Below, piece by piece: positions 7,861 to 40,169 of a stretch of DNA of 64,000 nt; within the stretch, counting starts at the first letter, position 1; each line of letters begins with the position of its first letter. The notes below the pieces were generated by a model. That model had not been told where the DNA came from and searched no databases. It saw only the letters and a program-made list of their open reading frames with translations. Source of the DNA: Lactobacillaceae bacterium (GTDB lineage: Bacteria > Pseudomonadota > Alphaproteobacteria > RF32 > CAG-239); NCBI GenBank assembly GCA_031271345.1, contig JAISVX010000003.1, positions 167,374-231,373 of the forward strand, read 5' to 3'. The translations under genes and the position numbers were made by a program.

Positions 7861-9174
7861 TTATCTTCTCCTCATGGATTTTCTCAAAGATTGGATAGAA
7901 AATCTTGCTTTCGCCAAGCTTTTCTGCTCCTTTGGTTTTTGCTCATTTTTATTAAACCTTTCCGCCCGTCTGGCTGCGTGGTCAGATTTTTCTTTTTCAA
8001 TATTCTCCATAATTTTTCTGGCGGCGATTTTTTCTCTTAATTCTTCCGTATCATTGGTTATAAATGAGCCGTCATAATAAAACACGTTGTTTTGCGCCCT
8101 TTTTGTTCTTGGGTCGTTTGTATAATCATAATCGAGCTGCTGAATTGGTGACAATCCGCCGACAAAAACCACATTTTTATTTTTAAATGCCATGCTGTTG
8201 CGCATAAGCCTGCCGTTTTCATTTAACGACTTATCTAATCTATGGATAATTTTTCCATGATAAGGATCGTCAATACATAGACAGAGGTTTTCAAACAGGT
8301 TTATTTCGCCCATTTTAGATTTGCTGTTTGCCTCGTTAACGGCGATTTTATGGTGGACGGATATTCTTGGTCCCTTAATTTCTATCCCGTTCTCATCAAA
8401 AACCCGAAAATTTTCGGACATGCCTTTTGATTTCATATTTTTAACAAGTTCTTTGATATATCTTTTATCAACGCCGACATCTTCCAAAATTTTTACAAAC
8501 GGTTTTTCAAAGTTTTTAATAAAATCTTTTACAAAGCTGTATTTTGCGCCAAGAAACATAGGAGCGTTTTCATCGTCTTCCGCGCGCTTGAACTGGTTGT
8601 GTATGACGTCTGTATAGTCTTCCACAGCCATGTTTTTTAAATCTTGGGGATTTACGCCGCTTTCGCTTAGCTGTCTCTTTACTCTTGTTTCAATGTTTCT
8701 AAAGTTTTTAAACTGTCTGAACAAAAGCCATGACGGAGAAGTTGATAAATCATAATCTTCGGGCTTGTATCTGTTTTTATTACCGGGGTTTTTGCATGCG
8801 CGGCTGTAAAAATCGGATAACAGCTCGGGGTCCGGCTTGGTAGTTGAGCCGTAATAATCCATGCGGATTACTCTCTTTTCGGCTCTTGTTAATGAATTGA
8901 ACTCTTGGGTCTTAAACTCTATTCCGGCTTTGTCCAAGAGGCTCAACAGTTCATCGAACTCTTTTTTGCCTTTCTTCAACTTGTTTCTTTTTGATTCAAA
9001 TGTTTTAAGGATTTCTTTGGTTAGCTCTTTTTCATTATTAAATAATTTTTTCTTTAGCTTTAAGATTTTTATTTTTTCGCTTTTTGTCATGGCGGCAAAG
9101 TCCGCTTCATCAAAGTTTGCGGGCTTTATGAAGTTTATGTAATCATCATAACTTTCTAGCTTATATTCCTCCAC
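7861..9174 (-). CDS. HNH-like nuclease-domain protein, paralog B (437 aa); candidate toxin or effector
   Basis: C-terminal HNH motif SVHHKIAVNEANSKSKMGEINLFENLCLCIDDPYHGKIIH (HH...N...NLxLC.C...H..H). Shares the central block WxxFxxFxNFxNIExxV with 9161-10510. Basic C-terminal tail. Confidence 0.5.
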   Translation of the reverse strand: MEEYKLESYDDYINFIKPANFDEADFAAMTKSEKIKILKLKKKLFNNEKELTKEILKTFESKRNKLKKGKKEFDELLSLLDKAGIEFKTQEFNSLTRAEKRVIRMDYYGSTTKPDPELLSDFYSRACKNPGNKNRYKPEDYDLSTSPSWLLFRQFKNFRNIETRVKRQLSESGVNPQDLKNMAVEDYTDVIHNQFKRAEDDENAPMFLGAKYSFVKDFIKNFEKPFVKILEDVGVDKRYIKELVKNMKSKGMSENFRVFDENGIEIKGPRISVHHKIAVNEANSKSKMGEINLFENLCLCIDDPYHGKIIHRLDKSLNENGRLMRNSMAFKNKNVVFVGGLSPIQQLDYDYTNDPRTKRAQNNVFYYDGSFITNDTEELREKIAARKIMENIEKEKSDHAARRAERFNKNEQKPKEQKSLAKARFSIQSLRKSMRRR

Positions 9175-10510
9175 TTCCTTTGCCTTTTATTTTAGAGATT
9201 GCCACAGTCGGAAGTTCCTTAGTGTTTTCCTGTTTTTTGCCAGAATACTTTATCCTGAAAAGAGGGGTCAGACTAAGCATCATATCATATACTTCTTTTT
9301 CGGGGAACAGACCGAAGACTTTATCGTTATTTGCTCCCGTATATTCTCTGTCGTTGCTGTGGATGAGCGTATGTATAAATTTTGACACGACAAGCAGGTT
9401 ATCGTCGGCATTTATATGATTGTAGTCCAAGTGTTTGCCGGCGTTGCTGACATGGACGATATGGTGGGTAGATAAATCGCCAAGCAGAAGACCTTTTGTT
9501 TTTGCAAGATGCAGCCTCAGACTTATTTCTTTTTCGCTTTTGCCTCTTAGTTTAAGATACTTCGTGTACTTTTCAGACGTTTCGTCTCCTTTGAACGCGT
9601 CCATAACTCTTTTGTTTACCGAGCCGATGAACATATATGTTCCAGCTTCGTTTTCTTTGCCAAAATATCTTCCAATCAGGTCTTTAAACTCAAAGACTCC
9701 CATATATTTGACTGTATCCGGGATAAATCTGTATTCCTGAAGCGCTTCGATGACCTTGTCTTCGATGTTTTTAAAGTTTTCAAATTTTGAAAACACATTT
9801 TTCCAAGCGTCGGATTCGTATAAATTATACTCTTCCGCTTGATAGAAAGGAGTGTCTTTCCGAAAGACCTTTTTTCCGCCGATAATTTTCTCTACTTCTT
9901 TTTTCTCTTTTTTTCCGTTTGAATTTATGATGGTTTTATGTTCTTTAACAACAATCCCATCAACAATTTCATATTTGCCCTCGTATTTGATTTCTGAAAT
10001 ATAATTTGCGTTAAGATGATATTCATCCAATGTTCTGTCTTTGCCTTCGCAATAAGGTCTTAGCTTGGAAAGATGAGGGGGATTGGGGAAAAGTCCGCTT
10101 GCGTCGAGTCTTGTAGCTTCTCTGACATCTCCTGGAGTGTCAAACATATCTTTTTCTTTGTAATATAAATCAAGAATATTAGCCGAAACCTCATCAAGAG
10201 TGCATTCGTTGTCAAAAATGTATCCCTGAATTGCTGTCTGCAATGACACTTCGCGGCAGAGCAATGAGATTTCGCCAATTGAGAAACCGCAGTTTTTGTA
10301 TTCTTCAACAAGTTTTATATCTTGTTTTGTCAGACATGCCTCGATTAACGGCATGTCGGGAAAATTTGCTATAATTGCTTTTTCGATTCTCTGGTGCTGT
10401 TTGATTTTTATTACGTCTTCGTTCTTCCTGTTGCCAGTCTTAAAGTCGTCAGCAGTTAAAGGGAAACCCTTTGTCATTTCAATATATTCGTAGTCTTCTT
10501 GATTAATCAC
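9161..10510 (-). CDS. HNH-like nuclease-domain protein, paralog A (449 aa); candidate toxin or effector
   Basis: C-terminal THHIVHVSNAGKHLDYNHINADDNLLVVSKFIHTLIH matches the HNH pattern but lacks the Zn-binding Cys pair. Central block WKNVFSKFENFKNIEDKV is homologous to paralog B. Overlaps the next gene by 14 nt. Confidence 0.5.
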   Translation of the reverse strand: MINQEDYEYIEMTKGFPLTADDFKTGNRKNEDVIKIKQHQRIEKAIIANFPDMPLIEACLTKQDIKLVEEYKNCGFSIGEISLLCREVSLQTAIQGYIFDNECTLDEVSANILDLYYKEKDMFDTPGDVREATRLDASGLFPNPPHLSKLRPYCEGKDRTLDEYHLNANYISEIKYEGKYEIVDGIVVKEHKTIINSNGKKEKKEVEKIIGGKKVFRKDTPFYQAEEYNLYESDAWKNVFSKFENFKNIEDKVIEALQEYRFIPDTVKYMGVFEFKDLIGRYFGKENEAGTYMFIGSVNKRVMDAFKGDETSEKYTKYLKLRGKSEKEISLRLHLAKTKGLLLGDLSTHHIVHVSNAGKHLDYNHINADDNLLVVSKFIHTLIHSNDREYTGANNDKVFGLFPEKEVYDMMLSLTPLFRIKYSGKKQENTKELPTVAISKIKGKGSGGI

Positions 10511-12197: not shown

Positions 12198-12213
12198 AAG
12201 AGATAGATAAAAT

Positions 12214-12240
12214 AAAAGCCTCCATTCGGAGGCTTTTATT
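12214..12240. terminator. Bidirectional rho-independent terminator between convergent pepA and the Cys-repeat gene
   Basis: Hairpin AAAAGCCTCC-ATTC-GGAGGCTTTT followed by a T-run. Confidence 0.7.
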
Positions 12241-13350
12241 TTATCTAGGAGTGCAATCCTTATAACATGTAAGGTTTCCAAGGTTTGTCTGCGTACATCT
12301 ATATCCGACGGGAACATAAGTCGAATATCCCGCTTCCGCGCAGTTTGCTGGCTGCTTTGTTTCTTCTTGTTTTACCTTGCAGTCTTTATAACATGTTAAA
12401 GAACCTACATACACCTCGGTACACTTATTGTTTACAGGGACATAAGAAGAATATCCGGCTTCAATGCAGGTTTTTGGAGGTATATCTCTGCAGTTTGACG
12501 CATCATAACAGCTCAAACCTTTATAAGATATGGTATCGCATATTTTGTTTGATGGTTTTATCTCTGAATATCCGCCGTCAGAACATTTATATTCTCTGCA
12601 TTCATAACAATTGTTATAGTCTTCATTAACAACCTTTCTGCTGCATTTAAGGTCGGACTGGTCGGTGTCGTAATAGCCGATATCAGTGCAGGATAATGCT
12701 CTGCAGTCAGCGTAACATGTAGTGTTCAGGTACATAACTTCATCGCATTTTTCTCTGTCGGGCTGATAATGCATGTATCCGCCGCTGTTGCAAATTTCTT
12801 CGTAGCTGAAACATTCAAAGCATACCAAATTTTTGTCGGTAACTTCAAAACACTGCTGTCCAGAGACTTTTCTACTGCTAAATCCTAAGTCGGAGCAGGT
12901 TATTGTTTTGCAGTTTTTATAACAGGTATTGCCGTTAACTTTGGTTTCCGTACATGTCTTTCCCTCGGGAACAGCGCTTTTATATCCTGAGCTTTCGCAG
13001 GAGTCAGAACAGTCTTTGTAGCAGATTTTGTCGTTTAGTTTTGTTTGAATGCATTTTTGTCCGACAGGAACAGAGCTTAAAAGTCCGACATCTTCGCAGG
13101 CAGTTTCTGGAACATCCCTGCAGTTAACATAACATCTGGAACCTTCTTTGTATATGTTATCGCATTTCTGCCCGGCGGGAATGCTGGAATAAAACCCGAG
13201 CTGGTCGCATGTTTTTTTAGGAGTTGTCGGCGCGGGTCTGGCTTCGTCGCCGTATCCGTCGGTAATGAATCTGACGCGAGCGTCGGCATAACTTATGGCA
13301 AAAAGCATAAGTCCAAATATTATTAGTGTTTTTTTTCCTAGTTCAGTCAT
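12241..13350 (-). CDS. Secreted cysteine-rich tandem-repeat protein (9 x ~36 aa, 4 Cys per repeat)
   Basis: Signal peptide MTELGKKTLIIFGLMLFAISYADA. Nine repeats of C-x3-G[YF]-x5-6-P-x3-KC-x7-9-C[YF]-x-[DN]-C, e.g. CIEAGYSSYVPVNNKCTEVYVGSLTCYKDC. The DNA also carries the repeats (recurring TTATAACATGT). Confidence 0.6.
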   Translation of the reverse strand: MTELGKKTLIIFGLMLFAISYADARVRFITDGYGDEARPAPTTPKKTCDQLGFYSSIPAGQKCDNIYKEGSRCYVNCRDVPETACEDVGLLSSVPVGQKCIQTKLNDKICYKDCSDSCESSGYKSAVPEGKTCTETKVNGNTCYKNCKTITCSDLGFSSRKVSGQQCFEVTDKNLVCFECFSYEEICNSGGYMHYQPDREKCDEVMYLNTTCYADCRALSCTDIGYYDTDQSDLKCSRKVVNEDYNNCYECREYKCSDGGYSEIKPSNKICDTISYKGLSCYDASNCRDIPPKTCIEAGYSSYVPVNNKCTEVYVGSLTCYKDCKVKQEETKQPANCAEAGYSTYVPVGYRCTQTNLGNLTCYKDCTPR

Positions 13351-13799
13351 TATTCTTTATCAAAGTTGTTTAAGAATTCGTGTTTAATTTTATCCCCAAT
13401 TTTAATATTATGCTTTTGAACCTGTCCGCCGTTAAGCTCTAAAACAAGATCAAAAGGCACAGGAGACATTATAATGTCTTCAGACATTGGCTGCGCGTTT
13501 TCATAAATCCACACGACGCTGCCGTTTTCGTCAATGAAAAGCATATCTAAAGGAATGAGCGTGTCTTTCATCCACATGGCGGCTCCTTGGATACCGCTTA
13601 AATCAAAAATCATACCTTCGTTTTCAGGCATATTTTCTACAAGCATAAGACCGTTCATGAGTTCGTCTGGTTCTTGTGCGTTCTGCACCACAAACCTAAC
13701 CTCTCCGTTTTCGGTTACAACAGCAAGATTTGATTCGTCTTTACCTTTACAGCTTATAATTAGTAAGCAAACTAGAAATATTTTTAATATGTTTTTCAT
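13350..13799 (-). CDS. DUF192-family lipoprotein (COG1430-like)
   Basis: Lipobox LIISC. DUF192-like core GLMLVENMPENEGMIFD...MWMKDTLIPLDMLFIDENGSVVWIYENAQP. Its stop overlaps the ATG of the Cys-repeat gene (TAATG). Confidence 0.6.
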   Translation of the reverse strand: MKNILKIFLVCLLIISCKGKDESNLAVVTENGEVRFVVQNAQEPDELMNGLMLVENMPENEGMIFDLSGIQGAAMWMKDTLIPLDMLFIDENGSVVWIYENAQPMSEDIIMSPVPFDLVLELNGGQVQKHNIKIGDKIKHEFLNNFDKE

Positions 13800-14059
13800 T
13801 TTTTATCACCTTATATTAAAAGAAAACTCAGAATAATCCTTATTATTAGTACCAATATTTATTATGTAAATAGTACAGTATCTTTAATAATTTTCAATAT
13901 AAATTTGACGAATAATGAATAATTTTATTAGGCGTTGAATTTTTGTTTCTAATTATTCTTTTCTGCTTGTATAATGTTTTTTTATATTATATCTATATTA
14001 TAAGCTGGATAAAGCTTGGTGTCGTGTGTGACTATTCTTTTTATTGAAGGATTTTTTTC

Positions 14060-14935
14060 ATGTTAAAACTTAGAAACTTTCTTATCATATTTCTGTGCGC
14101 CGCAGCTCTTTCTTCATGTAATAAGAGCGATTTCCCCGAACTGAGAGCGGAAAACGAGGAAAATATATTTGCGGAAGCTGTCGTCATAACGCAGACGGAA
14201 GAGATAGATTTAGCATCAGCGGCAGATGATGGCAAAGTAATCATCGCTTCTGTTGCTAAAGAAGGAATTGATGAAAAAGAAATAATTGTTTCAGCTGTTA
14301 AAGATGTTCCGAAAGACGAGGGCGTCGTAATTATGGCGTCTGCCGCAAAAGAGGACAGCAGCGTTGTAAAGGCAAAGCCGATATTGAAAGAAAAAGTTAA
14401 AAAAGAAATGCCTCGCCCCGCAGCTTTAACGCCGGCGAACAAAAAGCCGATAGGCAAAATCCTTGCAAATAAGGAAATGGAAAAAATAAATACAGTCAAA
14501 ACAGATTCTAACGGCGTGGTATCAGAAACTTCCGTTATAACTTCTACGTCGTATGAAGAAGTATCTTCAGAGCCGAGCATTACATATCAGGTTGATACAT
14601 TTTATTTTGATAATGGAAGCGCTGTCATTAAAAATGAATACAAATCAAGAATTAAAACAATTGCAAAACAGGCGAAAGAGTTGAACGCCACAATTTATGT
14701 TTTGGGTTTTTCTTCAAGCAGAACAAAAGATACTGATTATGTTTCTCATAAAATGATAAATTTTCAATCGTCTCTCGCAAGAGCTGAGAATGTTTCGGAA
14801 GAGTTTATAAAAGCCGGTGTCAGAAAGGATAAGGTTGTTCTGGAAGCGCTTTCAGACTCAAGACCTTTGTATCTTGAGGTTATGCCGGAGGGCGAAAGAC
14901 TAAACCGTCGTGTAGAAGTTTATATAGGATATTAA
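14060..14935 (+). CDS. OmpA-family (C-terminal OmpA-like peptidoglycan-binding domain) lipoprotein
   Basis: Lipobox LSSC. C-terminal OmpA-like region YFDNGSAVIKNEY...NRRVEVYI. Confidence 0.75.
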   Translation: MLKLRNFLIIFLCAAALSSCNKSDFPELRAENEENIFAEAVVITQTEEIDLASAADDGKVIIASVAKEGIDEKEIIVSAVKDVPKDEGVVIMASAAKEDSSVVKAKPILKEKVKKEMPRPAALTPANKKPIGKILANKEMEKINTVKTDSNGVVSETSVITSTSYEEVSSEPSITYQVDTFYFDNGSAVIKNEYKSRIKTIAKQAKELNATIYVLGFSSSRTKDTDYVSHKMINFQSSLARAENVSEEFIKAGVRKDKVVLEALSDSRPLYLEVMPEGERLNRRVEVYIGY

Positions 14936-21786: not shown

Positions 21787-24459
21787 TTATAGGTTAAAGT
21801 CGGTTATACCATCATAAGCATAGCGGTATAACTGCTCTATTTCCGCAATCAGCGGGTAGCGCGGATTGGCGCTGGTGCATTGGTCGTCAAAAGCAAGAGC
21901 TGCCAAACCTTCTTTTAAAGCCTGTTCAAAGTCTTCTTTTGCAACGCCAAAGTCTTTTATTGATTTTGGAACGCCGATTTCTTCTTTAAGTTTTTCTATG
22001 GCCTTTATTAAATTGCCGACTTTCTCGTCATCATTTTTGCCGCCAAATCCCATATAATCGGAAACGCTTGCATATTTTGCCTTAACATTAGGGAACTTAT
22101 ATTGCGGGAAAGCAGCCTGTTTTACTGGAACATCAGTGGCGTTATAACGAATAACCTGGCTGATTAACAGGGCGTTTGCCCAGCCGTGCGGAATGTGAAA
22201 TCTGTTGCCCAATTTGTGCGCCATAGAGTGGCAGACGCCGAGAAAAGCATTGGCGAAAGCCATGCCGGCTATTGTCGCGGCATGATGAACTTTTTCTTTT
22301 GCTTCAAAATCTTCTCCGCCGTTTTTATAAGAACGCGGCAGGTAGTTAAAAACTAGTTTAGCCGCTTCCAATGACTGTCCGTGGGTAAAATCGCTGGACA
22401 TAACCGATACATAAGATTCTAAAGCGTGAGTCATAATATCGATGCCGGAAGCGGAGGTTAAGCCTTTTGGCATTGTAAGCACCAGGTTTGTATCGACAAT
22501 TGCCATATCAGGGGTCAGCGCATAGTCTGCAATCGCATATTTTGTACCGGTCGCATTATCTGTGATAATAGAAAAAGGAGTGACCTCGGAACCTGTGCCG
22601 GAAGTCGTCGGGATAGCTGCCATTTTGGCTTTTTTTCCAAGCTTGGGAAACTCGAAAATTCTTTTTCTAATATCCATAAAGCGCATTGCAAGGTCTTCAA
22701 ATTTAAGTTCTGGATGTTCGTACATCAGCCATATAACTTTTGCCGCATCCATTGGCGAGCCGCCGCCTAAAGCGATGATAACATCCGGATTGAAGCCGTT
22801 GACCACTTTCATCGCGCGGTTAACGGTGTCCAAGTCAGGATCAGGGTTTACATCCGAAAAGATTTGATACTGAACGCCAATATCATCAAGAACTTTAGTA
22901 ACTTTGTCGGTCAGACCTAAATCAAACAAAGGTTTATCAGTAATGATAAACGCGCGTTTTCTATCGGCAAGTTCTCTTAGCGCATACTCGGTCGAACCAG
23001 CTTTGAAATAAATATTTGACGGAACTTTATACCACAACATGTTTTCTTCTTTCATAGCAACAGTTTTAATGTTTATAAGATGTTTAATACCAACGTTTTC
23101 ACTGACGGAATTTCCTCCCCACGAACCGCATCCAAGTGTTAAGGACGGGTCTGTTTTGAAATTATATAAATCGCCGATTGCTCCTTGAGAAGCGGGGGTG
23201 TTGATTAATATGCGCCCGGTATTCATAACTTTTCCGAAAAAGCTTATTCTGTCTTTGTTGGCGTTGTTGGTATAAAGAACGGAAGTATGTCCGTTGCCGC
23301 CAAAAGAAACCAGTTGTTTTGCTTTGTTTACGGCATCGGAAAAATCATTTGCTTCATACAGCCCCAGAATTGGTGAAAGCTTTTCTTCGGATAAAGGCTC
23401 AGAATGTCCGATTTCTTTTAGCTCCGCCATAAGAACTTTTGCTTTTTCATTTACCTTAAAACCCGCCATGCCGGCGATTTTATATGCGGATTGACCGACA
23501 ATGTCGGCGTTTAATTTGCCGTCCTTGAATGCCGTATGCTCAAGTTTTTCTTTTTCTACGATATTTGTAATATATGCTCCGCGTTTTAAGAACTCCTCTT
23601 TTACTTTTTTATATGCTGATTGAACGCAGACCACAGACTGTTCGGAAGCGCAGATAACGCCGTTGTCAAAAGTTTTGCTTAAAAGAATTGAGCTTACGGC
23701 TTCTTCAATATCGGCGGTTTCATCAATGACTACAGGCGTATTCCCAGCACCCACGCCCAAAGCCGGTTTGCCGGAGCTGTATGCGGCTTTAACCATTCCC
23801 GGACCGCCGGTCGCGAGAATAACGTCAACTTTTGGGTGTTTCATTAAAAGCCCGGACATGGTTATTGTCGGGTTTTCTATCCATCCGATAATATTTTCAG
23901 GCGCTCCGGCTTTTACAGCCTCCTCAAGCATGATTTTTACTGTCTCAACGGTAGATTTCTTTGCGCGCGGGTGAGGCGAGAAGATGATGGCGTTTCTGGT
24001 TTTTAAGGCTATTAATGTTTTGAATATTGCGGTGGATGTCGGGTTTGTAGTTGGAACAACACCGGCAATAACGCCGAGAGGAGAGGCGACTTTAAGAATT
24101 TTTCTTTCAAAATCTTCATAAATAATATCGCAGGTTTTTTCATTTTTATATTTGTTATAGACATATTCGGAAGCAAAATGGTTTTTAATTACTTTGTCTT
24201 CAACAATTCCCATTCCTGTTTCTTCCACCGCCATTTGCGCAAGAGGAATACGAAAAGTACTTATTCTAAGAGCGACTTTTCTAAAAATTTCATCAACTTT
24301 TTCTTGAGGAAACGCTGCGAACTCTTTTTGCGCGTCGCTCACTTTTTCTACCAGCTCGTCAATATACTTAACTTCATCAAAAGCTTCTATATCATCGTCG
24401 TTTTTTACTATCACTTTTATCTCCATGTTTAAAAATCTATTTATCTTAATATTTGTCAT
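21787..24459 (-). CDS. adhE: Bifunctional acetaldehyde-CoA / alcohol dehydrogenase AdhE
   Basis: Collinear with E. coli AdhE throughout (GMGIVEDKVIKNHFASEY; VPTTNPTSTAIFK; GSWGGNSVSENVG; Fe-ADH motif GGGSPMDAAK; HSMAHKLG). The start may be the internal GTG preceded by GGAGA. Confidence 0.9.
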   Translation of the reverse strand: MTNIKINRFLNMEIKVIVKNDDDIEAFDEVKYIDELVEKVSDAQKEFAAFPQEKVDEIFRKVALRISTFRIPLAQMAVEETGMGIVEDKVIKNHFASEYVYNKYKNEKTCDIIYEDFERKILKVASPLGVIAGVVPTTNPTSTAIFKTLIALKTRNAIIFSPHPRAKKSTVETVKIMLEEAVKAGAPENIIGWIENPTITMSGLLMKHPKVDVILATGGPGMVKAAYSSGKPALGVGAGNTPVVIDETADIEEAVSSILLSKTFDNGVICASEQSVVCVQSAYKKVKEEFLKRGAYITNIVEKEKLEHTAFKDGKLNADIVGQSAYKIAGMAGFKVNEKAKVLMAELKEIGHSEPLSEEKLSPILGLYEANDFSDAVNKAKQLVSFGGNGHTSVLYTNNANKDRISFFGKVMNTGRILINTPASQGAIGDLYNFKTDPSLTLGCGSWGGNSVSENVGIKHLINIKTVAMKEENMLWYKVPSNIYFKAGSTEYALRELADRKRAFIITDKPLFDLGLTDKVTKVLDDIGVQYQIFSDVNPDPDLDTVNRAMKVVNGFNPDVIIALGGGSPMDAAKVIWLMYEHPELKFEDLAMRFMDIRKRIFEFPKLGKKAKMAAIPTTSGTGSEVTPFSIITDNATGTKYAIADYALTPDMAIVDTNLVLTMPKGLTSASGIDIMTHALESYVSVMSSDFTHGQSLEAAKLVFNYLPRSYKNGGEDFEAKEKVHHAATIAGMAFANAFLGVCHSMAHKLGNRFHIPHGWANALLISQVIRYNATDVPVKQAAFPQYKFPNVKAKYASVSDYMGFGGKNDDEKVGNLIKAIEKLKEEIGVPKSIKDFGVAKEDFEQALKEGLAALAFDDQCTSANPRYPLIAEIEQLYRYAYDGITDFNL

Positions 24460-25825: not shown

Positions 25826-28800
25826 CTAAAATTTGTATTCAACACCGGCTTTAATTTCATAAGAACCGTCCCTCTCAATAATTTTACCCGCTTCGGTAAA
25901 CAGGTTAAGAGATTTGAAGTAATAATCTAATCTGCCTGATATTAGACCTCTGGATTTATCGCTTTCATAGCCCTTCATGTTATAATAGCCCGGCATGCCG
26001 AACATTGTCGCGTTTGAATTGCCGTAAGTATCGCCAAATTCTTGATAGAAAGTGCCGCCAATACGAACTTTTACAGAATTAAAATCGTCAATCTCAAAAG
26101 TTTTCTTCGCATATAAACCAAGCCCGCCTTCAACAGACAAGCTGTTGGAAGATTTAACGGTCAACTGCTGCTTTTCTTTGGTTTTTGTTTGGTATACGCC
26201 CAGAACATTAAACTCTGCCGTTGGTTCAAGCGTGAAGAAACCTAAATCAATGTCTTTTCTTACTTCGTTGGTAACTCCGTAGTAATAATTTTTTGTATCC
26301 GCTTTATAAATATTGCCGGAAACAACTCTGCGGTAATCGCCCCATCCGAGACCAACTCTTGGCATAGATACAAAAGCGATTGTATCTGTTTGATATTTTA
26401 ACGGCGCCAATATGTGGACTAAAGTGTCGTCTCTTTTCGAAGAATTGTCATATTCGCTGTTTAATTGGGTTATTGTGAAACCCGCGCCATAACTGAAATT
26501 GTTGTTATATCTCTTTTGAACCAATCCATAAACAGAATGCGCGTCTTCTTCATAACCCTCAACCGCTCCAGACGCTTCCTGGTCTTTTTGTATGAAGTCA
26601 TAGCCCATCATCGCAACAACTTCGCGAGGGTCGTTATTTGCAAATACGCTGTTGTTAACCTGACGGTTTAAGCTCTTAACAGCTTCAAGATTCTGTCTTG
26701 CAAAACTTGGGAAGAAGTCTAAGCCAAGAAAGTTGTTCACCGCTTTTGTCAAACCGTTTTGATTGTTTGCATTTTTTACTGCATTAAACAGAGTTAACGC
26801 ATTTTGCGCTTTTTTGCTCTCAGTCTCTCCTGACGCGTTATACAAGTCGTAGGCATTATTTAAGTATTTAGCCAGATATTTGTCGGAAACAACTTCGTCA
26901 AACTCTTTCATAGTCATTACAACATCTTTGTTTCCGTCTCTGTTTTCTACCAGTTCCGCGTTGAACATGTAAGAATTTGAAAGCAGTTCTAATTCTGAGC
27001 TGTCGCCGATAAACGCGTTTTCGCTGACAAAAGATTTGTTAAAGCTGTCCGTTGTAATATTAGAGCCGGCATAAACTATGCCTGATATTTCTGGAGCTTC
27101 GTATTTTCCGTCTTTCTCAACAACAATTTTTCCGCCTTTCAAAGTCCAGTCATTAAAGTTAATCGCTGTTGAAGATATGGTTATGCCGCCGCTTCCGGTA
27201 ACAAACTCTGCGTTGTCGCCAATAGAAATATAAGAGGATGCGTTACAATCGTCATCGCTGCAGCTGTTAGTTCCGATTTTTATTGTGCCGTCATTATAAA
27301 CATAAGATGTGTCTGTTGTGGTTCCTACCGCATAGATACCGTTGCCGCTGCCGGTTATATTGATAATACCAGTCGCGGCATTATACACTAATGCGCCGTT
27401 TAAGGCAATTATGCCGGCGCTGGCGGTGTTATTGGATGTTATATTAATAGTGCCTCTATTTACGGCTTTTGAATCTGCGCCGGTAGCATACATGCCATAA
27501 GCTTTTACGGTGTTAGTCGTACTGGAAATGTTTATTGTCGCTCCAACATCGTTTACAATTGCCGCGCCTCCGGTTGTAAACATGCCTATTAGAGAAGTAT
27601 TTGCGGTAGTGCCGCTTAAGGAAATTGTTCCTCTGTTATATGCCTTGCTGTCCGTTCCGGTAACCGCCATTCCATAAGTATCAGCGGCTGCGGTTGTTAC
27701 GGTTATTTTACCATTAGCCATATTTATCAGTTCCGCGCCGTCAACGCCATACATGCCGTATCCGCCCAGCATTCCAATTGAACCGCTGTTTACCGCCTGC
27801 GTGCCTTCGCCTTCCACATACATTCCAGAGCCGGACTGGGCGAGTTTTATAACGCCGCTGCTTAAGTTTGTAATTTTTGCGCCGTCAATAGCGACCATAC
27901 CATAACCTAGCCCTGCGCTGATATTGATTTTTCCGGCGTTTTCTGCCGAGCTTTCTCCAGAGAAAGCAGTCATACCAGTAGCCACGGCATCAATCGTGCC
28001 GTTTGTACCGTTTGTGACCTTGCCGCCCAATGTAGCCTGCATGCCGGAGGTTGTTATATAATCGTCAACGCTTCCGCCGGATATGGTAATTTGACTGTTG
28101 TTTACAGCCGTGCCGCTATTTGAAGTCTGCATGCCTATACCCTGGGATATTTTAATGGTTCCGCCTGATGAATTGGTAACAGTGCCGCCGGATGTCATCA
28201 TTCCAAATGCGTCAACACCTCCGACATATTCTATTGTTCCAGAGTTAAAACCTTCACCGTTTTCAGTATATACGCCGATTGTTCCGTTTCCAGTCAGATT
28301 TATATTTCCCATATTATAGGCTTTACCTTCATTTGCCATCATTCCATAGCTGTCCGCGCCGACAACGTTTAGCTTTCCAGAACTGGTGTTCATTACAACG
28401 CCTGTAGCTCCAGATACGCCCAATCCGACAGAGTTGATTTTGTTAATGTTTATTGTGCCGTTGTTTACGCCTTGTCCGCCATTGGCAAAGACGCCAAAGC
28501 TTTCCTGATCGTTTAATTCAATGGTTCCGTCGTTTCTTGCCGTACCTTCGGTAGTATACATGCCGTAAGAAGCAGGATCCATATCGGAGCCGGTAATGCT
28601 GATTGTAACGCCGGCGGAGTTTACGGATGAACTTCCTGCATTTCCATCAATTCCTATGCCGCCGTTGCTAAGCATTATGCCGGCTTTGTTAAGAATTGTT
28701 CCAGAGCCGGTTGCGGTAATGCCGTATCCGAAGAAACCGCTTATGGTTATGGCTGCATTGTTGGTTATTGAGCCGTTTTCGGCAGAAATGCCCGTGCCAT

Positions 28801-31390
28801 AGTTATTGTTGATGTACGCGCTGTTTCCGACGAGATTTATTTGACCGTAGTTATCAATTGTTGTCGAGCCTTCCCCAACGATACCTGCATTTTGCGTTCC
28901 ATCTAAATTGGAGTTAATGATAATTTTTCCATAGTTATAGACTTTGCCGTTTTCAACATATATGCCAGTTCCGTCCTTGCCGTTAATGTTTATCTCTGCA
29001 TTGGCATTATTTGAGGCTGTGCCGTTATACACAATGCCTGATGACTGAATGCCGGAAGAGTTATCCGCGTCAACATCAATCAATTTAAGGTTTTCAATAG
29101 TTCCGCTATCGCTTAGTATGCCGACGCCGGTTCCTTCTATTTTTACTGTTCCGTTATTAACGATATTGCCTGTCATTGAAGATATTCCATCGCCGCCGCT
29201 TTTCATAGTGATGGTGCCGTCATTGGTGACTTTGCCGTTTTCTGACAAAATGCCGACTCCTTTAAGCTCAAAAGTGATTTTTCCCGAACTTAAGTTGTTT
29301 ACGTTGGCATTTTCAGAATATATACCATAAGACGGGGTAGCAGTTGGGTCAACGTTGTTTACATTGATATTTATCTGCCCGGTATTGTTCACTGTTCCGG
29401 CTACGGCATATAGTCCGTAGTTGTTTTTGCTGACTGACGAAATAATATTTTCAACATTAACGATGCCGTTGTTGTTTAGTGTTCCATATTCAATATATAT
29501 GCCGTAAGAGTCGTCCGCTTTATTAATGTTAACCGTGCCGCTGTTATTAACCGCTGTTCCGGCAGTGTCGTAGTTTGTGCTTCCTTCTCCGACAGGGTTT
29601 CTAATGACCGTAATTCCTTTGCCGCCGCTGTTCATGGTGATAACGCCGGTATTGTTTATTGTTCCGGCGTTTGAGTGAATGCCGGTGCCTGTAGAAGCAA
29701 AATTAATCTGGTTTGTATTGCTTATGCTTCCGCCATGAAGAGAAATCATTCCATATCCGCCGATACTATCCATATTGATAGAGCCGGTATTGGTTAATGT
29801 CGGTTTGCGCACATCAAATTCAGAGTTTGTACCGTTTCCGCGAATGGCAATCATGCCGTATCCTTCGGTGCCGCCTTTAACGCTGATTGCACCTTGGTTA
29901 AGCAAAGTTCCTCCGTGAACTGACAGCATGCCTGCATGAGAACCTGTAAAATCTGCGTCGTCATTTGATTCGACCTCAACATTTACGGTCCCGGTAGAGG
30001 TGTTGGTGGCCGTAGTGTTCGCGTCAGCCCTGATACCGATAATGCCGTTGTTTGCTTCGCGAATGTTTGTGACATAGCTTGATGAGCCGACGAGAGATGA
30101 TTTTACGCTTATTTGACCACTGTTGGTGATTTCAACATAACCGGCTCTGCTTAGAAGTTTTTTACCATTAGTGAAATCTTCTTCAATGTAGCTTCCCATA
30201 CCAACCAGAGCGGTCGCATTAGAAGACGATGTTGAAGTGTTGCTCAAATCGATTACTCCCGTTACCCCGTTAGTAAGTTTTGTAGCGTAAGCTGGAGTTG
30301 GATTGTCTTCCTGGTTTATAATTCTTCCCTGCATGCCGACCAATGTGCCTGCCGTAGCGTTAGAGCTTATGGTTTTGATGTTTTTGTTGTTTAGTATTAA
30401 TCCGTTTGTGTCCGAATATATGCCGATAATTTGGTGTGTGTCAAAAGAACCTTCAAAGCTCATTAATATATCGCCGCCGTTTGTTGCCTGTCCGTTATCG
30501 CTGGCAATCATTCCCACAGTTCCGCTTGCGGCATTGATTTGGATTATATTGTTATTAAATGCTGTGGCTCCATTTCCCAAAGCTACCAAGCCTGCGGTAA
30601 CGTTTTTAAGGTTTATTGTTCCGTTATTCGTTAGGGAAGTGTTTTGGTATGCTTTAAATGCGACCTGAATATATTTTGCATATTCAAGAATGTTGCTGTT
30701 AAAATCCATCCAGGAAAGAAGGTATTTGCCATCCTCGAACATTCTGTCATTATCAAAAGTTAAACTTTCTGTATTTGTGTATGACGAGCCATTTTGAGCT
30801 TTTTTATATATTGCCTGGTATCCGGCTGGAGCATCATAAGGTTTTAATGTTCCGGCAAAATCTCCGAGGTTGTCGTTTGTAGCTTTGTATCCATGACCAC
30901 CACCGCCTCCGCCGCCTCCGCCACCGCCAGCGGCAAGGGCAACTCCCGCGCCGGCAAGCAATAATCCGCCGATAACCCAGGTTTTGGTAGAAATAACGAA
31001 CTCACCTTTGTCAAACCTTGTGTAAGCGGCTCTTGGCGTTTCTTCCAGCCCGACCACGCCGCTTGAGTTCATGAAAGAATTGTATTGTTGTCTTGGAATA
31101 TTTTGGGTACATCCGTGTTTTGGGTTGGAGCCTGCGGCTCTAAAAGCATTATATGCTGTTTTATTGTTTCTTTTTATGGCATAACATAAACCAGTGTCCC
31201 CGTTTCTGTCTACGGTATCAATATTCATTCCGCGCTGGACAGCCGCTCTCAATGCCCTTACGTTTCCAGAAGAAGCGTAGCCGTACATTTGTGAAAGATT
31301 TAGAGGAGGAATATTTGCATGACTTGCAGTACTGGTAAAATAGAAACACACTGCAGTAATTATTGAAATACTTTTACGAAAATTTCCCAT
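25826..31390 (-). CDS. Giant type Va autotransporter (1854 aa) with an ankyrin-like N-terminal module, a Gly11 tract, a long beta-helix passenger and a C-terminal beta-barrel
   Basis: N-terminal signal peptide. 1.5 ANK-like repeats (NGDTGLCYAIKRNNKTAYNAFRAAGSNP). A second hydrophobic segment then G11 (DNA 30896-30928). Hundreds of G-x-G/NxGTI beta-helix repeats. The C-terminal barrel ends ...IKAGVEYKF. Confidence 0.8.
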   Translation of the reverse strand: MGNFRKSISIITAVCFYFTSTASHANIPPLNLSQMYGYASSGNVRALRAAVQRGMNIDTVDRNGDTGLCYAIKRNNKTAYNAFRAAGSNPKHGCTQNIPRQQYNSFMNSSGVVGLEETPRAAYTRFDKGEFVISTKTWVIGGLLLAGAGVALAAGGGGGGGGGGGHGYKATNDNLGDFAGTLKPYDAPAGYQAIYKKAQNGSSYTNTESLTFDNDRMFEDGKYLLSWMDFNSNILEYAKYIQVAFKAYQNTSLTNNGTINLKNVTAGLVALGNGATAFNNNIIQINAASGTVGMIASDNGQATNGGDILMSFEGSFDTHQIIGIYSDTNGLILNNKNIKTISSNATAGTLVGMQGRIINQEDNPTPAYATKLTNGVTGVIDLSNTSTSSSNATALVGMGSYIEEDFTNGKKLLSRAGYVEITNSGQISVKSSLVGSSSYVTNIREANNGIIGIRADANTTATNTSTGTVNVEVESNDDADFTGSHAGMLSVHGGTLLNQGAISVKGGTEGYGMIAIRGNGTNSEFDVRKPTLTNTGSINMDSIGGYGMISLHGGSISNTNQINFASTGTGIHSNAGTINNTGVITMNSGGKGITVIRNPVGEGSTNYDTAGTAVNNSGTVNINKADDSYGIYIEYGTLNNNGIVNVENIISSVSKNNYGLYAVAGTVNNTGQININVNNVDPTATPSYGIYSENANVNNLSSGKITFELKGVGILSENGKVTNDGTITMKSGGDGISSMTGNIVNNGTVKIEGTGVGILSDSGTIENLKLIDVDADNSSGIQSSGIVYNGTASNNANAEININGKDGTGIYVENGKVYNYGKIIINSNLDGTQNAGIVGEGSTTIDNYGQINLVGNSAYINNNYGTGISAENGSITNNAAITISGFFGYGITATGSGTILNKAGIMLSNGGIGIDGNAGSSSVNSAGVTISITGSDMDPASYGMYTTEGTARNDGTIELNDQESFGVFANGGQGVNNGTININKINSVGLGVSGATGVVMNTSSGKLNVVGADSYGMMANEGKAYNMGNINLTGNGTIGVYTENGEGFNSGTIEYVGGVDAFGMMTSGGTVTNSSGGTIKISQGIGMQTSNSGTAVNNSQITISGGSVDDYITTSGMQATLGGKVTNGTNGTIDAVATGMTAFSGESSAENAGKINISAGLGYGMVAIDGAKITNLSSGVIKLAQSGSGMYVEGEGTQAVNSGSIGMLGGYGMYGVDGAELINMANGKITVTTAAADTYGMAVTGTDSKAYNRGTISLSGTTANTSLIGMFTTGGAAIVNDVGATINISSTTNTVKAYGMYATGADSKAVNRGTINITSNNTASAGIIALNGALVYNAATGIINITGSGNGIYAVGTTTDTSYVYNDGTIKIGTNSCSDDDCNASSYISIGDNAEFVTGSGGITISSTAINFNDWTLKGGKIVVEKDGKYEAPEISGIVYAGSNITTDSFNKSFVSENAFIGDSSELELLSNSYMFNAELVENRDGNKDVVMTMKEFDEVVSDKYLAKYLNNAYDLYNASGETESKKAQNALTLFNAVKNANNQNGLTKAVNNFLGLDFFPSFARQNLEAVKSLNRQVNNSVFANNDPREVVAMMGYDFIQKDQEASGAVEGYEEDAHSVYGLVQKRYNNNFSYGAGFTITQLNSEYDNSSKRDDTLVHILAPLKYQTDTIAFVSMPRVGLGWGDYRRVVSGNIYKADTKNYYYGVTNEVRKDIDLGFFTLEPTAEFNVLGVYQTKTKEKQQLTVKSSNSLSVEGGLGLYAKKTFEIDDFNSVKVRIGGTFYQEFGDTYGNSNATMFGMPGYYNMKGYESDKSRGLISGRLDYYFKSLNLFTEAGKIIERDGSYEIKAGVEYKF

Positions 31391-37097: not shown

Positions 37098-38060
37098 TTA
37101 AAATTTCCCACCATTTAATACGAAATCGACCCGCTCTTTAGCATTTAGGTTTTTGGGATAGTGTTTGTCAATGTTCTTAAGAACTTTTTGCAATCCGATG
37201 CCGTTGGCGATTTGTATCGCCAGTCCAGGTCTTGCGTTAAGCTCTAACATCATCGGACCTTTGTCTTTATCAAGCACAATATCCGCGCCGATATATCCAA
37301 GCCCTGTCATGTCATACGCTTTGGAGCCAATATCAAGGTGTTCTCTCCATAGGGGGACAGCTAAATCCATAAGGTTTGCGTTTGTATCTGGATGGATGGT
37401 AACGGGCTTGTCTTTTAATACGGCGTTTAAAGCTTTTCCCGTGCTTATATCCAATCCGACGCCGACCGCTCCCTGGTGGAGGTTTGCTCTTCCTCCAGAC
37501 ATTTTTGTCGCCAACCTCATCATTGTCATCGCGGGAAAGCCCTTATAAACAATAATCCTGACATCGGGAACTCCCTGATAGCTGAAATTATTGAAAATGC
37601 TGCTGAAATGAACCAGTTCTTCAATCACGACATTATCATATCTGCCGCCCAAACTGTATAATCCGCTCAAAATATTGGAAATATGCTGGTACACTTCATT
37701 ATAGGTTATTTTTCTTCCCGAAGCAGTGGTGAAAATTTCTTTATTGTGTTCCGTAACAACCAGAATGCCGCGTCCGCCGCTTCCCTGAGCCGGTTTTATA
37801 ACAAACTCTTTATAATCTCCTATAATATCCAGAATATTTTTTGCTTCGTGCTGATATTCGATTATTCCGATGAGCTTAGGAGTGTTTATTTCATGTTCTT
37901 GAGCCAGCGTTTTTGTAATAACCTTATTGTCAACCAGAGGATATAAGCTTCTTTTGTTGCATTTGGATATAAATTTATAATTGCGGGCATTCATGCCGAG
38001 AACTCCATTTTCGTGAAGTTCTTTCGGGGTCGCAAAAATTTTGGAAAGCAGCTTAAACAT
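37098..38060 (-). CDS. RimK-like ATP-grasp ligase (alpha-L-glutamate-ligase-related)
   Basis: ATP-grasp motifs (FVIKPAQGSGGRGI; MLELNARPGLAIQ). Sits in an operon with the 7TM-transglutaminase-like and retropepsin-like genes. Confidence 0.75.
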   Translation of the reverse strand: MFKLLSKIFATPKELHENGVLGMNARNYKFISKCNKRSLYPLVDNKVITKTLAQEHEINTPKLIGIIEYQHEAKNILDIIGDYKEFVIKPAQGSGGRGILVVTEHNKEIFTTASGRKITYNEVYQHISNILSGLYSLGGRYDNVVIEELVHFSSIFNNFSYQGVPDVRIIVYKGFPAMTMMRLATKMSGGRANLHQGAVGVGLDISTGKALNAVLKDKPVTIHPDTNANLMDLAVPLWREHLDIGSKAYDMTGLGYIGADIVLDKDKGPMMLELNARPGLAIQIANGIGLQKVLKNIDKHYPKNLNAKERVDFVLNGGKF

Positions 38061-38063
38061 CTG

Positions 38064-39599
38064 TTATCCCTTAACCAAAGGAGCAAATCTGGTCAGCTCC
38101 AGCAGTCTGTATCCCGTGTAAGTGCCGAGAAGCATAACAAGGAACAGGATTACGTAGTTTATTTCGCCAAAAGCGTAAGTTATGTGTCTTATATATTCAT
38201 TGCTCACAACAAGATATGTCATAACGGCGGTTATTAGGCTGAAGACAATCTCTCTGGTCGCGTTTGCCGCGCCGTCTTCTTCCCAGGTGATTGAAGCTCT
38301 CTCAATAATCCATGCCATAATGATTATCGGGAAAAACACGGCAGATAAACCTATGTTTAAGCTGAACTTTTGACCGATGATAGTCATTGCCTGCATGATT
38401 ATTATGACAAAAATAACCACGGCGGATATTCTGGGAACCAGCAGAAGGTTAAGTTTTGACAGCAGTCCGCGCAGGAGCATGCCTATAATAAGGATGATTG
38501 AAAACGAAATCATGCCGCTTACAAAGCCTGTCTGCACCAGTGACATTGCAATCAGCATAGGGGTAAATGTTCCCATTGTTTTCAAGCCGATTACGTTGCG
38601 GATTATCACAATAATTAATATTGCGAGAGGGAACACGCTTAACCATTTGATAATGTTTTGTTCGTTGAGCGGCAGGCTGAAAATTGAAGAGTCAAAATAT
38701 GCCTGCTGGTCGGCAATTCTTGCTCTGTGGGAGGCTAAGTCAAAGTTTGAGCTTAAAGACTTTAATACGGAAAACTGGATTGAAGAATCTTCTCCGCCCT
38801 CAATATCGACCAAGCCTTTATCACCTCTTTGAAAAATGACAAAATCTCCGGGAATGCCGCGCTTTCCCGTTCCGATATTGTATACTCTCCATTTGTTTCT
38901 AATATATGCTTCGACCATCAAATCCGCTTCGAGAGATTTTTTTCCTTCTTCAAGCTTTACGCCCTTAACCACGCGTGACGAAACCTTTTCTATTGCCAAA
39001 AGCTCCCTTATTGCCGCGGCGATTTCTTCCTGTGATATTTTAAACGGCAGATAAGAAGATACTAACGGGTGGGCAGGCTTTTGATTAAATATATGTATAA
39101 GCTTTTCAGGCAGATCGCCTTCCATTTCCTTTGTCAGTTCGATAATTTCTTTCGCAATTGCTATTTGCCTCTCGTCAAGCTGTGGTATTTTAGGAGCCTG
39201 AGGTTTAATGTCTTTTGTCAGACCTTTTGTATCTTCATTATCAAACAGCATAACCCGATAATAGATGTTTTGTTCGGAGTTTCTGGGGTTAGATGTTAAT
39301 ATAAGCTTTTTTTGTCCATTTTTTTCGGTCTTAACAACATACCCGGTTGCAATAATGCTGTCGTCAAGGACTTTAAAATTATCAGAGTCTTCTGGAGTCG
39401 TTATTGAAACTTTTATTTTTTCGCCGGTAGGCATAAAGGATATATGTTCTTCAATTGACCAAACGCCTGTGCTTTGCTTTGGCTTGAAGCTAAAGCCCCA
39501 GTATTTTACTTTATAGTACGTGCTTGTTGCCGCAACAATTATTGAGATGAGCAGACATACAAATAAAACAAATCTGACAGACTTTATTTTTTTTATCAT
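38064..39599 (-). CDS. Inactive-transglutaminase-like domain fused to a C-terminal 7TM module (7TM_transglut-like)
   Basis: N-terminal TM anchor, ~280-aa extracytoplasmic domain, then 7 predicted TM helices at the C-terminus. 4-nt gap to the RimK-like gene. Confidence 0.55.
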   Translation of the reverse strand: MIKKIKSVRFVLFVCLLISIIVAATSTYYKVKYWGFSFKPKQSTGVWSIEEHISFMPTGEKIKVSITTPEDSDNFKVLDDSIIATGYVVKTEKNGQKKLILTSNPRNSEQNIYYRVMLFDNEDTKGLTKDIKPQAPKIPQLDERQIAIAKEIIELTKEMEGDLPEKLIHIFNQKPAHPLVSSYLPFKISQEEIAAAIRELLAIEKVSSRVVKGVKLEEGKKSLEADLMVEAYIRNKWRVYNIGTGKRGIPGDFVIFQRGDKGLVDIEGGEDSSIQFSVLKSLSSNFDLASHRARIADQQAYFDSSIFSLPLNEQNIIKWLSVFPLAILIIVIIRNVIGLKTMGTFTPMLIAMSLVQTGFVSGMISFSIILIIGMLLRGLLSKLNLLLVPRISAVVIFVIIIMQAMTIIGQKFSLNIGLSAVFFPIIIMAWIIERASITWEEDGAANATREIVFSLITAVMTYLVVSNEYIRHITYAFGEINYVILFLVMLLGTYTGYRLLELTRFAPLVKG

Positions 39600-39614
39600 T
39601 ATGAACCTTCTTTA

Positions 39615-40169
39615 CTATTTTAGTGTGTTTTTTAAGGCTGTATCAACGACAGCGCGGCCGGTTAAAAGATTTCTTCCGACAAGGATTTGATAGTTAAACT
39701 TATCTCTTTGGGCTAAAGAAACTTTTTCTTTTATCACCATGTCTCCAATCTTTATATCCATAACAACAAAAATTCTTTCCTCGCTGTCATCAATTCTTTT
39801 AATTTTTTTAATTTCTTCAATCTTTTTCTCAAAAGTATGTTTTTCCCCGGTTTCTCTGTTTATCACGCCGAAAGAAACCCATTTTTTGCCGTCTCTTTCA
39901 AATATTTTTTGGCTGTAAACGTCAATTGAAGTAGTTTGAGCGCCGGTGTCAATTCTGGAAATAAACGGAGATTTTATCGGAGGAAGATAAATAGGTTCAA
40001 TTTCGCCGATTATTCCTAAAGGCTGCTTTACCTCATGCTTAACTTCAATTCCGGGAACAATTCTTGGCACGTCCTGCGTCGCTGTATCAGGGTGCGAACA
40101 GGAAGAAACAAAAAGCATTGATATAATCAACAATATTTTATTCAGTTTTAGTACATGATTTTTATTCAT
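39615..40169 (-). CDS. Retropepsin-like aspartic protease lipoprotein (RimK-associated 'putative ATP-dependent zinc protease' family)
   Basis: Lipobox FVSSC. Aspartic-protease active-site motif RIDTGAQTTSID (D-T-G-A). Confidence 0.6.
   Translation of the reverse strand: MNKNHVLKLNKILLIISMLFVSSCSHPDTATQDVPRIVPGIEVKHEVKQPLGIIGEIEPIYLPPIKSPFISRIDTGAQTTSIDVYSQKIFERDGKKWVSFGVINRETGEKHTFEKKIEEIKKIKRIDDSEERIFVVMDIKIGDMVIKEKVSLAQRDKFNYQILVGRNLLTGRAVVDTALKNTLK

Follow-up and report, generated by a model that had tools for sequence, protein, structure and literature searches.

An apparently lineage-restricted family of cysteine-rich repeat proteins, predicted to form hairpin modules and to be exported, and its pairing with a DUF192 lipoprotein gene in one small clade of uncultured Alphaproteobacteria

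A gene for a cysteine-rich repeat protein was analyzed in a 64,000-nucleotide (nt) stretch of an alphaproteobacterial genome (contig JAISVX010000003.1 of GenBank assembly GCA_031271345.1, positions 167,374 to 231,373), herein called the window. The gene encodes a protein of 369 amino acids (aa) with 36 cysteines (Cys) in nine tandem modules, and it directly follows a gene for a DUF192 lipoprotein. Both the domain family that the Cys-repeat gene defines and the signature motif at its N-terminus are absent from curated libraries. The family is confined, as far as seen, to uncultured, mostly gut or rumen Alphaproteobacteria related to Candidatus Scatocola and CAG:495. With slightly better than even confidence, we read the protein as a fast-evolving, disulfide-stapled rod of the envelope or surface, belonging to an undescribed lineage-restricted family and co-expressed with the DUF192 lipoprotein.

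The Cys-to-Cys gaps of the protein are 15, 10 and 4, nine times over, which gives the module C-x14-C-x9-C-x3-C. Variants are a C-x2-C ending in modules R4 and R6 and a C-x5-C ending in R7. The N-terminus, MTELGKKTLIIFGLMLFAISYADA followed by RVRF, shows a KK n-region, a hydrophobic core and an A-x-A box with small residues at -3 and -1, and is predicted to be a signal of the Sec, signal peptidase I type. The signal peptide contains no lipobox Cys. An earlier note on this DNA, made from the sequence without database searches, had described a nine-repeat protein of 369 aa with 36 Cys and a cleavable signal peptide. The first description was verified by the open reading frame and its Cys spacing, and the second agrees with the predicted n-region, hydrophobic region and A-x-A box. 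An artefactual or non-coding reading frame was ruled out by intact orthologues in four other assemblies, in which the Cys skeleton is conserved.

Known families were searched at the sequence and structure levels. Pfam and NCBIfam at E<=1 gave no family for the protein, and the lone Pfam match was spurious at 13.7 bits. The same two libraries gave no match over the repeat region of ten other family members. When the protein and a 51-module profile (A1) were compared with the PDB sequences, nothing significant was returned; CopZ (E 0.92) and polyphemusin (E 0.25) were found at non-significant values. Foldseek searches of the PDB with the full-length model and with a model of modules R4-R7 found nothing at E<=0.001. 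The best Foldseek matches, all non-significant, were the Entamoeba Gal/GalNAc lectin (E 0.31, with the full-length model), DcR3 (0.41), Pvs25 (1.4-2) and the Fu repeats of RSPO2 (~6). The literature found on Cys-rich repeats in Alphaproteobacteria and on RF32 contained nothing on this Cys4-repeat family. The placement of the repeat outside known families, which had been made by eye in the earlier note, is verified by these searches.

Several known Cys-rich domains were considered individually and rejected. EGF-like domains have six Cys in about 35-40 aa with 1-3/2-4/5-6 pairing; the module here has four Cys, no Pfam match at E<=1, and a Foldseek E of 1.4 to Pvs25. The TNFR cysteine-rich domain has six Cys in about 40 aa; no Pfam match was found, and Foldseek placed DcR3 and DR6 at E 0.41-2.8 with a template-modelling (TM) score below 0.2. 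Kazal-type inhibitors have six Cys in the Kazal spacing and a reactive-site loop; there was no match in Pfam and no sequence or fold match in the PDB. Zinc-ribbon modules have two CxxC-type knuckles and require all four ligands. The spacing C-x14-C-x9-C-x3-C and the persistence of modules with only the first and third Cys (C1 and C3) do not fit a zinc ribbon or a comparable Cys4 metal module.

The A1 profile was then searched with HMMER against 1.84 billion representative proteins. The search returned 148 proteins (clusters) at E<=1e-3 and 60 at E<=1e-10. All named members are hypothetical proteins of metagenome-assembled genomes (MAGs) labeled 'Alphaproteobacteria bacterium', and one MAG, J6A33, carries at least three of them in two clusters. 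The canonical unit is a 30-aa core with a 4-aa linker, a period of 34 aa; the linkers vary from 3 to 5 aa and the members have 1-9 modules. The window protein has the features that define the family, namely the spacing C-x14-C-x9-C-[YF]-x2-3-C, a G-[YF] pair behind C1, a hairpin turn with Gly, and the N-terminal motif (ARVRFITD, aa 24-31) after a signal peptide. Some larger members have matches below the gathering thresholds, either to Lcl_C (DUF1566, E ~4e-5) or to an adhesive domain of the pectate-lyase-like type (E 1e-4), so that adhesive domains are only suggested.

The N-terminal motif is a second conserved element. The form A[RKG]xx[FW][LI][PT]D was found in 32 of 152 family proteins, compared with 0.05 expected by shuffling; many of the others are truncated at the N-terminus. 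Other members carry AGVYWLPD, ARSHFLPD or AKTTFLPD, and a KLAAVC variant is present in eleven further sequences. In 786 kb of related loci the motif occurs 13 times, each time right after the signal peptide of a Cys-rich protein and never in other open reading frames. The sites include L004:6160, L008:284 and 3648, L043:5150, L053:296 and L054:5082. The motif may be a sorting or anchoring tag. In locus L008, a gene for 1053 aa with about 98 Cys (L008:215-3376) adjoins a gene for 655 aa with about 78 Cys (L008:3579-5546). Both have the YWLPD motif, which suggests tandem paralogues in some MAGs. As sequences, the Cys4 hairpin family and its motif are new, although Cys-rich extracellular repeats are a familiar kind of protein.

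The conservation pattern was determined among orthologues. A word-indexed search of 5.8 billion proteins returned only eight homologues, and four orthologues were identified (P0001, P0002, P0003 and P0009). The comparison of repeat number across relatives that the earlier note had proposed gave 7 or 9 modules. P0001 and P0002 have 286 aa and 7 modules each; P0003 has 283 aa, with 6 complete modules and a last one retaining only C1 and C3; P0009 has 371 aa and 9 modules. The orthologue modules match R1-R7 one to one, and R1-R9 in the case of P0009. Between P0009 and the window protein, 36 of 36 Cys are conserved while the identity of the non-Cys residues is just 39%. This indicates that the Cys pattern is selected and is not due to chance. 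The orthologue group was confined to five SRA-derived assemblies in the searches made. Searches of the GTDB representative genomes and the JGI metagenomes with the orthologue alignment (A3) gave no relative. A word-indexed search with a three-repeat alignment (A4) returned zero proteins although A4 was built from family members, and filtering of the Cys-rich composition is a possible cause.

Percentage identity was also compared with the closest relative locus, L007. The value for the Cys-repeat protein is 45%. The neighboring proteins are at 85% (DUF502), 80% (RecJ), 68% (DUF192), 66% (M17), 63% (OmpA) and 48% (orf449). The Cys-repeat gene is the fastest-evolving gene of its neighborhood. An invariant Cys skeleton with a quickly changing surface is as expected of an exposed, disulfide-braced protein.

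AlphaFold was used to predict the structure. The full-length model has a predicted local distance difference test (pLDDT) score of 77.7 and a predicted TM (pTM) score of 0.32; the low pTM is as expected for beads on a string. The AlphaFold2 fragment R4-R7 has a pLDDT of 90.1 and a pTM of 0.55 and shows one hairpin per module: C1 is followed by a short helix or turn, and the beta-hairpin spans C2 to C4. In the DSSP register of the model, C2 and C4 are cross-strand or diagonal at the open end of the hairpin. Among 411 module instances in the family, 300 have all four Cys. The variant modules keep C1 and C3. C2 and C4 are lost jointly in the CxCx class and in the final P0003 module; in the CxCC and CCCx classes, a new Cys at position 10 takes the place of one of the two. 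From the co-loss of Cys, the DSSP register and a weak alignment with polyphemusin, we infer C2-C4 pairing, which would close the hairpin, and C1-C3 pairing, which would staple the N-terminal loop to strand 2. The survival of two-Cys modules argues against a four-ligand metal site.

These features lead to the following model. The protein would be exported via Sec and would fold outside the cytoplasm as a string of nine modules of about 30 aa. Each module would have a short N-terminal turn or helix and then a beta-hairpin, held by the two proposed disulfides, and the stapled modules would form a protease-resistant, semi-rigid rod. In larger family members, the same modules joined to non-repeat regions with adhesin-like domains may serve as a stalk. 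In the window protein, the modules themselves would be the exposed, fast-evolving surface. In the clade of the window, the gene would be transcribed, and probably translationally coupled, with the preceding gene for an outer-membrane-type DUF192 lipoprotein. A surface or adhesin role had been raised in the earlier note, and it fits the sub-threshold Lcl_C and pectate-lyase-like matches in the relatives and the high rate of change.

The DUF192 gene is the first of the pair. Its product matches PF02643 with 97.8 bits against a cut-off of 27, over profile positions 3-96 of 96, and matches the PDB entries 3PJY (E 3.7e-21) and 3M7A (E 2.9e-13). The lipobox LLIIS-C17 fits [LVI][ASTVI][GAS]C, and the protein is a putative lipoprotein. 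The lipobox Cys is invariant in 4 orthologues and is present in about 17 more distant DUF192 genes at the locus whose N-termini were examined. The order of DUF192 and then the Cys-repeat gene is kept in four further orthologous contigs. The earlier note had reported a TAATG overlap implying co-expression. The overlap of one base stands, and at four orthologous loci the two genes remain closely packed, with junctions of -1, -1, 0 and +8 nt (L007, -1; L001, 0; L002, +8). This makes co-expression plausible. The Cys-repeat gene is probably co-transcribed with the DUF192 gene, with translational coupling, as judged from the arrangement of the two genes. No strong Shine-Dalgarno sequence was visible upstream of its start when the sequence was read.

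The DUF192 gene was then followed across relatives. In about 25 related species, a DUF192 lipoprotein gene lies at the same place, divergent from OmpA-RecJ, without the Cys4-repeat gene. Unrelated genes are found downstream of it in about 22 of these. In the other three, which are gut Alphaproteobacteria (L012, L013 and L043), DUF192 is followed after 370-580 nt by a Cys-rich secreted gene other than the Cys4-repeat gene. The L043 gene (L043:4095-5303, minus strand) encodes 402 aa with 49 Cys; the L012 copy (L012:5116-5514, minus strand) is truncated, which suggests a pseudogene; the third is L013:5220-5741 (minus strand). The L043 and L012 genes are orthologues of the family member P0037, with 49-72% identity. 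P0037 has the motif GICFLPDC and three canonical modules, and AGICFLPDC is present in the L012 and L043 genes. No DUF192 neighbor was found for the distant family members examined. A general partnership of DUF192 with Cys-repeat proteins, for which the earlier note had suggested a co-occurrence analysis, is not supported by these relatives. The link holds in one small clade; it recurs elsewhere without being obligatory. An ancestral locus, a favored insertion site or a real interaction could each account for it.

Other explanations of the protein were weighed. The protein could work in the periplasm in metal binding or redox buffering, in the manner of a zinc-ribbon array or a metallothionein built of modules, with each Cys4 module holding a metal ion (Zn, Cu or Fe) or serving as a thiol sink. 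Such a protein would be in keeping with the presence of four invariant Cys in each ~30-aa module, the C-x2-C endings of R4 and R6, the anaerobic look of the genome (AdhE) and the lack of a visible Dsb gene in the window. However, the spacing C-x14-C-x9-C-x3-C has no paired CxxC knuckles, and the variants that keep C1 and C3 lose or relocate C2 and C4 as a pair, as two independent disulfides would and one tetrahedral site would not. There are no conserved His, Asp or Met co-ligands, and no metal-binding family was matched in Pfam, NCBIfam or the PDB. This explanation is considered quite unlikely, and we infer disulfides rather than metal sites. The modules could also be binding knots that act independently, in which case the protein would be a multivalent array of inhibitor or toxin type, set free in the gut lumen and comparable to tandem Kazal or SCREP-type proteins, the latter a concept set out in PMC6262176. 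The predicted secretion of a tandem of small disulfide-rich domains, the fast divergence of the non-Cys surface and the weak likeness of the second half of the module to the beta-hairpin peptide polyphemusin agree with it. Yet the searches gave no inhibitor or toxin fold at a significant level; the 3-5 aa linkers and the one-to-one module conservation suit a rod better than independent warheads, and relatives fuse the modules to large adhesin-like regions. We regard an inhibitor array as very unlikely.

A dedicated client relationship was also considered, in which the RVRFITD strand would dock to the DUF192 lipoprotein, and the rod would have DUF192 as its tether or chaperone at the outer membrane. 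The tight gene pair in the four further contigs speaks for this, as do the other Cys-rich genes downstream of DUF192 in L012, L013 and L043, two of them P0037 orthologues with the FLPD motif. On the other side stand the unrelated genes downstream of DUF192 in most of the species, the family members elsewhere that have no DUF192 neighbor, and the wide distribution of DUF192 far outside the Cys-repeat family (PF02643; PDB 3PJY, 3M7A). A dedicated client is unlikely, and it is, as are the metal and inhibitor arrays, less likely than the disulfide-stapled rod. The last alternative is a contingency or antigenic-variation locus in which the module number shifts by recombination between DNA repeats. 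The earlier note had seen the repeats in the DNA itself and had thought that they would permit expansion or contraction; neither claim withstood analysis. Tandem Repeats Finder reported zero tandem repeats. Pairwise DNA identity between modules is 47-66%, the exact DNA shared between modules is <=11 nt, and the longest direct DNA repeats are 14-38 nt with 60-93% identity. In a k-mer search, TTATAACATGT has two exact copies and one single-mismatch copy within the gene, and it is merely the reverse complement of T-C-Y-K codons. The difference of 7 and 9 modules among orthologues would suit recombination, and so would R8 and R9, the most alike pair, with 67% aa and 64% nt identity. However, R8 and R9 are mutually diverged and both are already present in P0009, and the difference is therefore old. 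Recombinational expansion or contraction is unsupported, given the excessive divergence of the DNA copies and the one-to-one correspondence of each module with an orthologue in relatives. A variable locus of this kind is highly improbable, and the recombination-driven explanation is essentially refuted.

For the disulfide-stapled rod, several points weigh on the negative side. The adhesin-type domain matches in relatives are under the Pfam gathering thresholds. The persistence of DUF192 at the locus in about 25 species without the Cys-repeat gene weakens any obligate partnership. No lipobox, beta-barrel or C-terminal sorting signal was recognizable in the protein, so that periplasmic, outer-membrane-bound and released forms are all compatible. 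The disulfide geometry is derived solely from the DSSP register and the co-loss of Cys. No Dsb gene was present among the genes of the 64-kb window; with this and the anaerobic look of the genome (AdhE), oxidative folding is assumed.

A broader and more speculative proposal joins the motif and the modules. The motif A[RKG]xx[FW][LI][PT]D and the Cys4 modules might together mark a lineage-specific surface system in uncultured gut Alphaproteobacteria, in which several genes would supply Cys-rich coat or adhesin proteins that resist proteases and evolve fast. Such a repertoire would be a bacterial counterpart of the Cys-rich variant surface proteins of protozoa. The tag would then be a new sorting or anchoring signal, possibly docking to DUF192 in this clade. 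We consider this proposal improbable as a whole. If the tag does dock to the co-translated DUF192 protein, this would be the first function assigned to DUF192; the titles and abstracts of the 20 papers listed, of 22 that mention DUF192, gave no function for it. The conserved pairing with a DUF192 lipoprotein is one of few testable leads to the function of this widespread family. If the proteins are surface disulfide rods, they are candidates for gut-protease resistance and for attachment to substrate or host. To our knowledge, there is almost no functional characterization of the group related to Candidatus Scatocola and CAG:495, and our impression is that heavily disulfide-bonded, multi-module exported proteins are uncommon in bacteria. 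The practical value is modest, as the protein offers a small stable scaffold and a candidate for a Pfam family, and current understanding is not overturned.

Table 1 Features of the two-gene unit in the window (positions are those of the window; a period in the strand column means that no strand is assigned).
Feature	Position	Strand	Basis or remark
Putative hairpin terminator, core GCCTCC-GAAT-GGAGGC	12204..12247	.	Consensus scan; ends the two-gene unit
Cys4-repeat protein gene	12241..13350	-	369 aa, ATG start, 36 Cys, nine modules; stop codon within coordinates
Repeat R9 (aa 337-366)	12253..12342	-	Only in 9-repeat forms (window protein, P0009); module and orthologue alignment
Repeat R8 (aa 295-324)	12379..12468	-	Only in 9-repeat forms (window protein, P0009); module and orthologue alignment
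Repeat R7 (aa 256-287)	12490..12585	-	Final module of 7-repeat orthologues; Cys spacing, orthologue alignment
Repeat R6 (aa 221-251)	12598..12690	-	C-x2-C ending, longer hairpin loop; Cys spacing, module alignment, model
Repeat R5 (aa 187-216)	12703..12792	-	Cys spacing, module alignment, model
Repeat R4 (aa 152-180)	12811..12897	-	C-x2-C variant; Cys spacing, module alignment, model
Repeat R3 (aa 118-147)	12910..12999	-	Cys spacing, module alignment
Repeat R2 (aa 85-114)	13009..13098	-	Cys spacing, module alignment
Repeat R1 (aa 48-77)	13120..13209	-	Cys spacing, module alignment
N-terminal family motif ARVRFITD (aa 24-31)	13258..13281	-	General form A[RKG]xx[FW][LI][PT]D
Predicted Sec signal peptide, aa 1-24 (MTELGKKTLIIFGLMLFAISYADA)	13279..13350	-	Sequence reading; predicted cleavage after A-D-A
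TAATG junction (GAATAATGACT)	13348..13352	-	DUF192 TAA stop and Cys-gene ATG, one base in common; sequence
DUF192 (PF02643) lipoprotein gene, first of the pair	13350..13799	-	149 aa; Pfam E 4e-28, lipobox LIIS-C(17)
Divergent intergenic region between DUF192 (-) and OmpA-domain lipoprotein gene (+)	13800..14059	.	Likely promoter region

The ends of the two-gene unit were examined. The putative terminator has A/T-rich flanks on its stem, AAAAGCCTCC-GAAT-GGAGGCTTTT, runs into T runs, and would be common to the Cys-repeat gene and a convergent M17 aminopeptidase gene. Promoter-like hexamers are present at 13870-13842 in the divergent intergenic region, and their count is not above that of shuffled sequence. 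The divergent gene at 14060-14935 (plus strand) encodes an OmpA-domain protein with the lipobox ALSS-C. The order OmpA-RecJ-DUF502 is conserved in about 20 related species (OmpA in about 21 of 25 loci; DUF502 in L001 and L007).

The gene content of the window, with GcrA, MlaA, MlaC, FadL, DnaG, RecJ, Sua5 and AdhE, is that of an ordinary part of the chromosome in a diderm alphaproteobacterium. The diderm envelope is indicated by MlaA, MlaC, FadL and the OmpA-domain lipoprotein. A RecJ scan of GTDB species genomes placed the window near Candidatus Scatocola faecigallinarum, Proteobacteria bacterium CAG:495 and many gut and rumen MAGs, with RecJ identities of 56-66%. A mobile element or phage cargo was ruled out by the housekeeping neighborhood (RecJ, M17, Sua5, GcrA, Mla, DnaG) and the unremarkable GC content. 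A bifunctional AdhE-type aldehyde/alcohol dehydrogenase (21787-24459, minus strand) and an Fe/Mn superoxide dismutase (43679-44248, plus strand) suggest a fermentative, oxygen-tolerant anaerobe, which bears on the availability of periplasmic disulfide formation.

Other genes of the window were also recorded. Two overlapping open reading frames (7861-9174 and 9161-10510, minus strand; 437 and 449 aa) have no Pfam match. In L007, a 439-aa gene beside M17 matches the 449-aa frame (48% identity) and is followed by an unannotated 465-aa gene. The C-terminal H-H...N...H pattern of the 449-aa protein, read by eye, may recall HNH nucleases. A giant open reading frame of 1854 aa (25826-31390, minus strand) has only a weak, sub-threshold match to Ank_4 (E 3e-4). 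The cluster at 37098-40169 (minus strand) has three genes, for an ATP-grasp protein (ATPgrasp_ST), a fusion of a seven-transmembrane region with an inactive transglutaminase, and a putative Zn protease (PF05618). It looks like a recognized, poorly understood conserved triad.

The Cys-repeat protein and its partner were compared with known systems. The DUF192/COG1430 entry 3PJY, a 'hypothetical signal peptide protein', has a signal peptide, as does the DUF192 protein of the window; the latter differs from 3PJY and 3M7A in being a predicted lipoprotein. Bacterial, secreted, tandem Cys-rich modules are also known in the Myxococcus cysteine-rich repeat and DUF4215. The curated bacterial Cys-rich repeats of NCBIfam and Pfam are alike in type, and the library scans matched none of them at E<=1, the models not being compared individually. 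Polyphemusin and tachyplesin (PDB 2B5K) provide a comparison for the second half of the module, in which C-x-V-x-Y-x-G-x-x-C-Y-x-x-C aligns with the hairpin whose strands are closed by the outer Cys pair. The outer disulfide falls over C2 and C4 and supports the C2-C4 assignment, within a weak alignment (E 0.25). Polyphemusin differs as a single 18-aa arthropod antimicrobial peptide without repeats, and the position of its inner disulfide is non-Cys in the module.

The furin-like (R-spondin Fu), EGF-like (Pvs25/Pfs25) and TNFR modules are, like those proposed for the Cys-repeat protein, tandem extracellular hairpin modules of about 30-40 aa that are held by disulfides in elongated rods. The module, as modeled, resembles these eukaryotic disulfide-stapled hairpin repeats as a general class and is a detectable member of none. 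The heavy chain of the Entamoeba Gal/GalNAc lectin is, like the Cys-repeat family, Cys-rich, exported and fast-evolving, from a gut dweller and with several paralogues per genome. The variant surface proteins of Giardia are comparable Cys-rich exported surface proteins of gut protozoa. The protozoan proteins differ in their CXXC/CXC motifs and their membrane anchor, whereas the Cys-repeat protein has no recognizable anchor and no detectable homology to them. Such Cys-rich surface proteins are thought to give protozoa protease-resistant surfaces.

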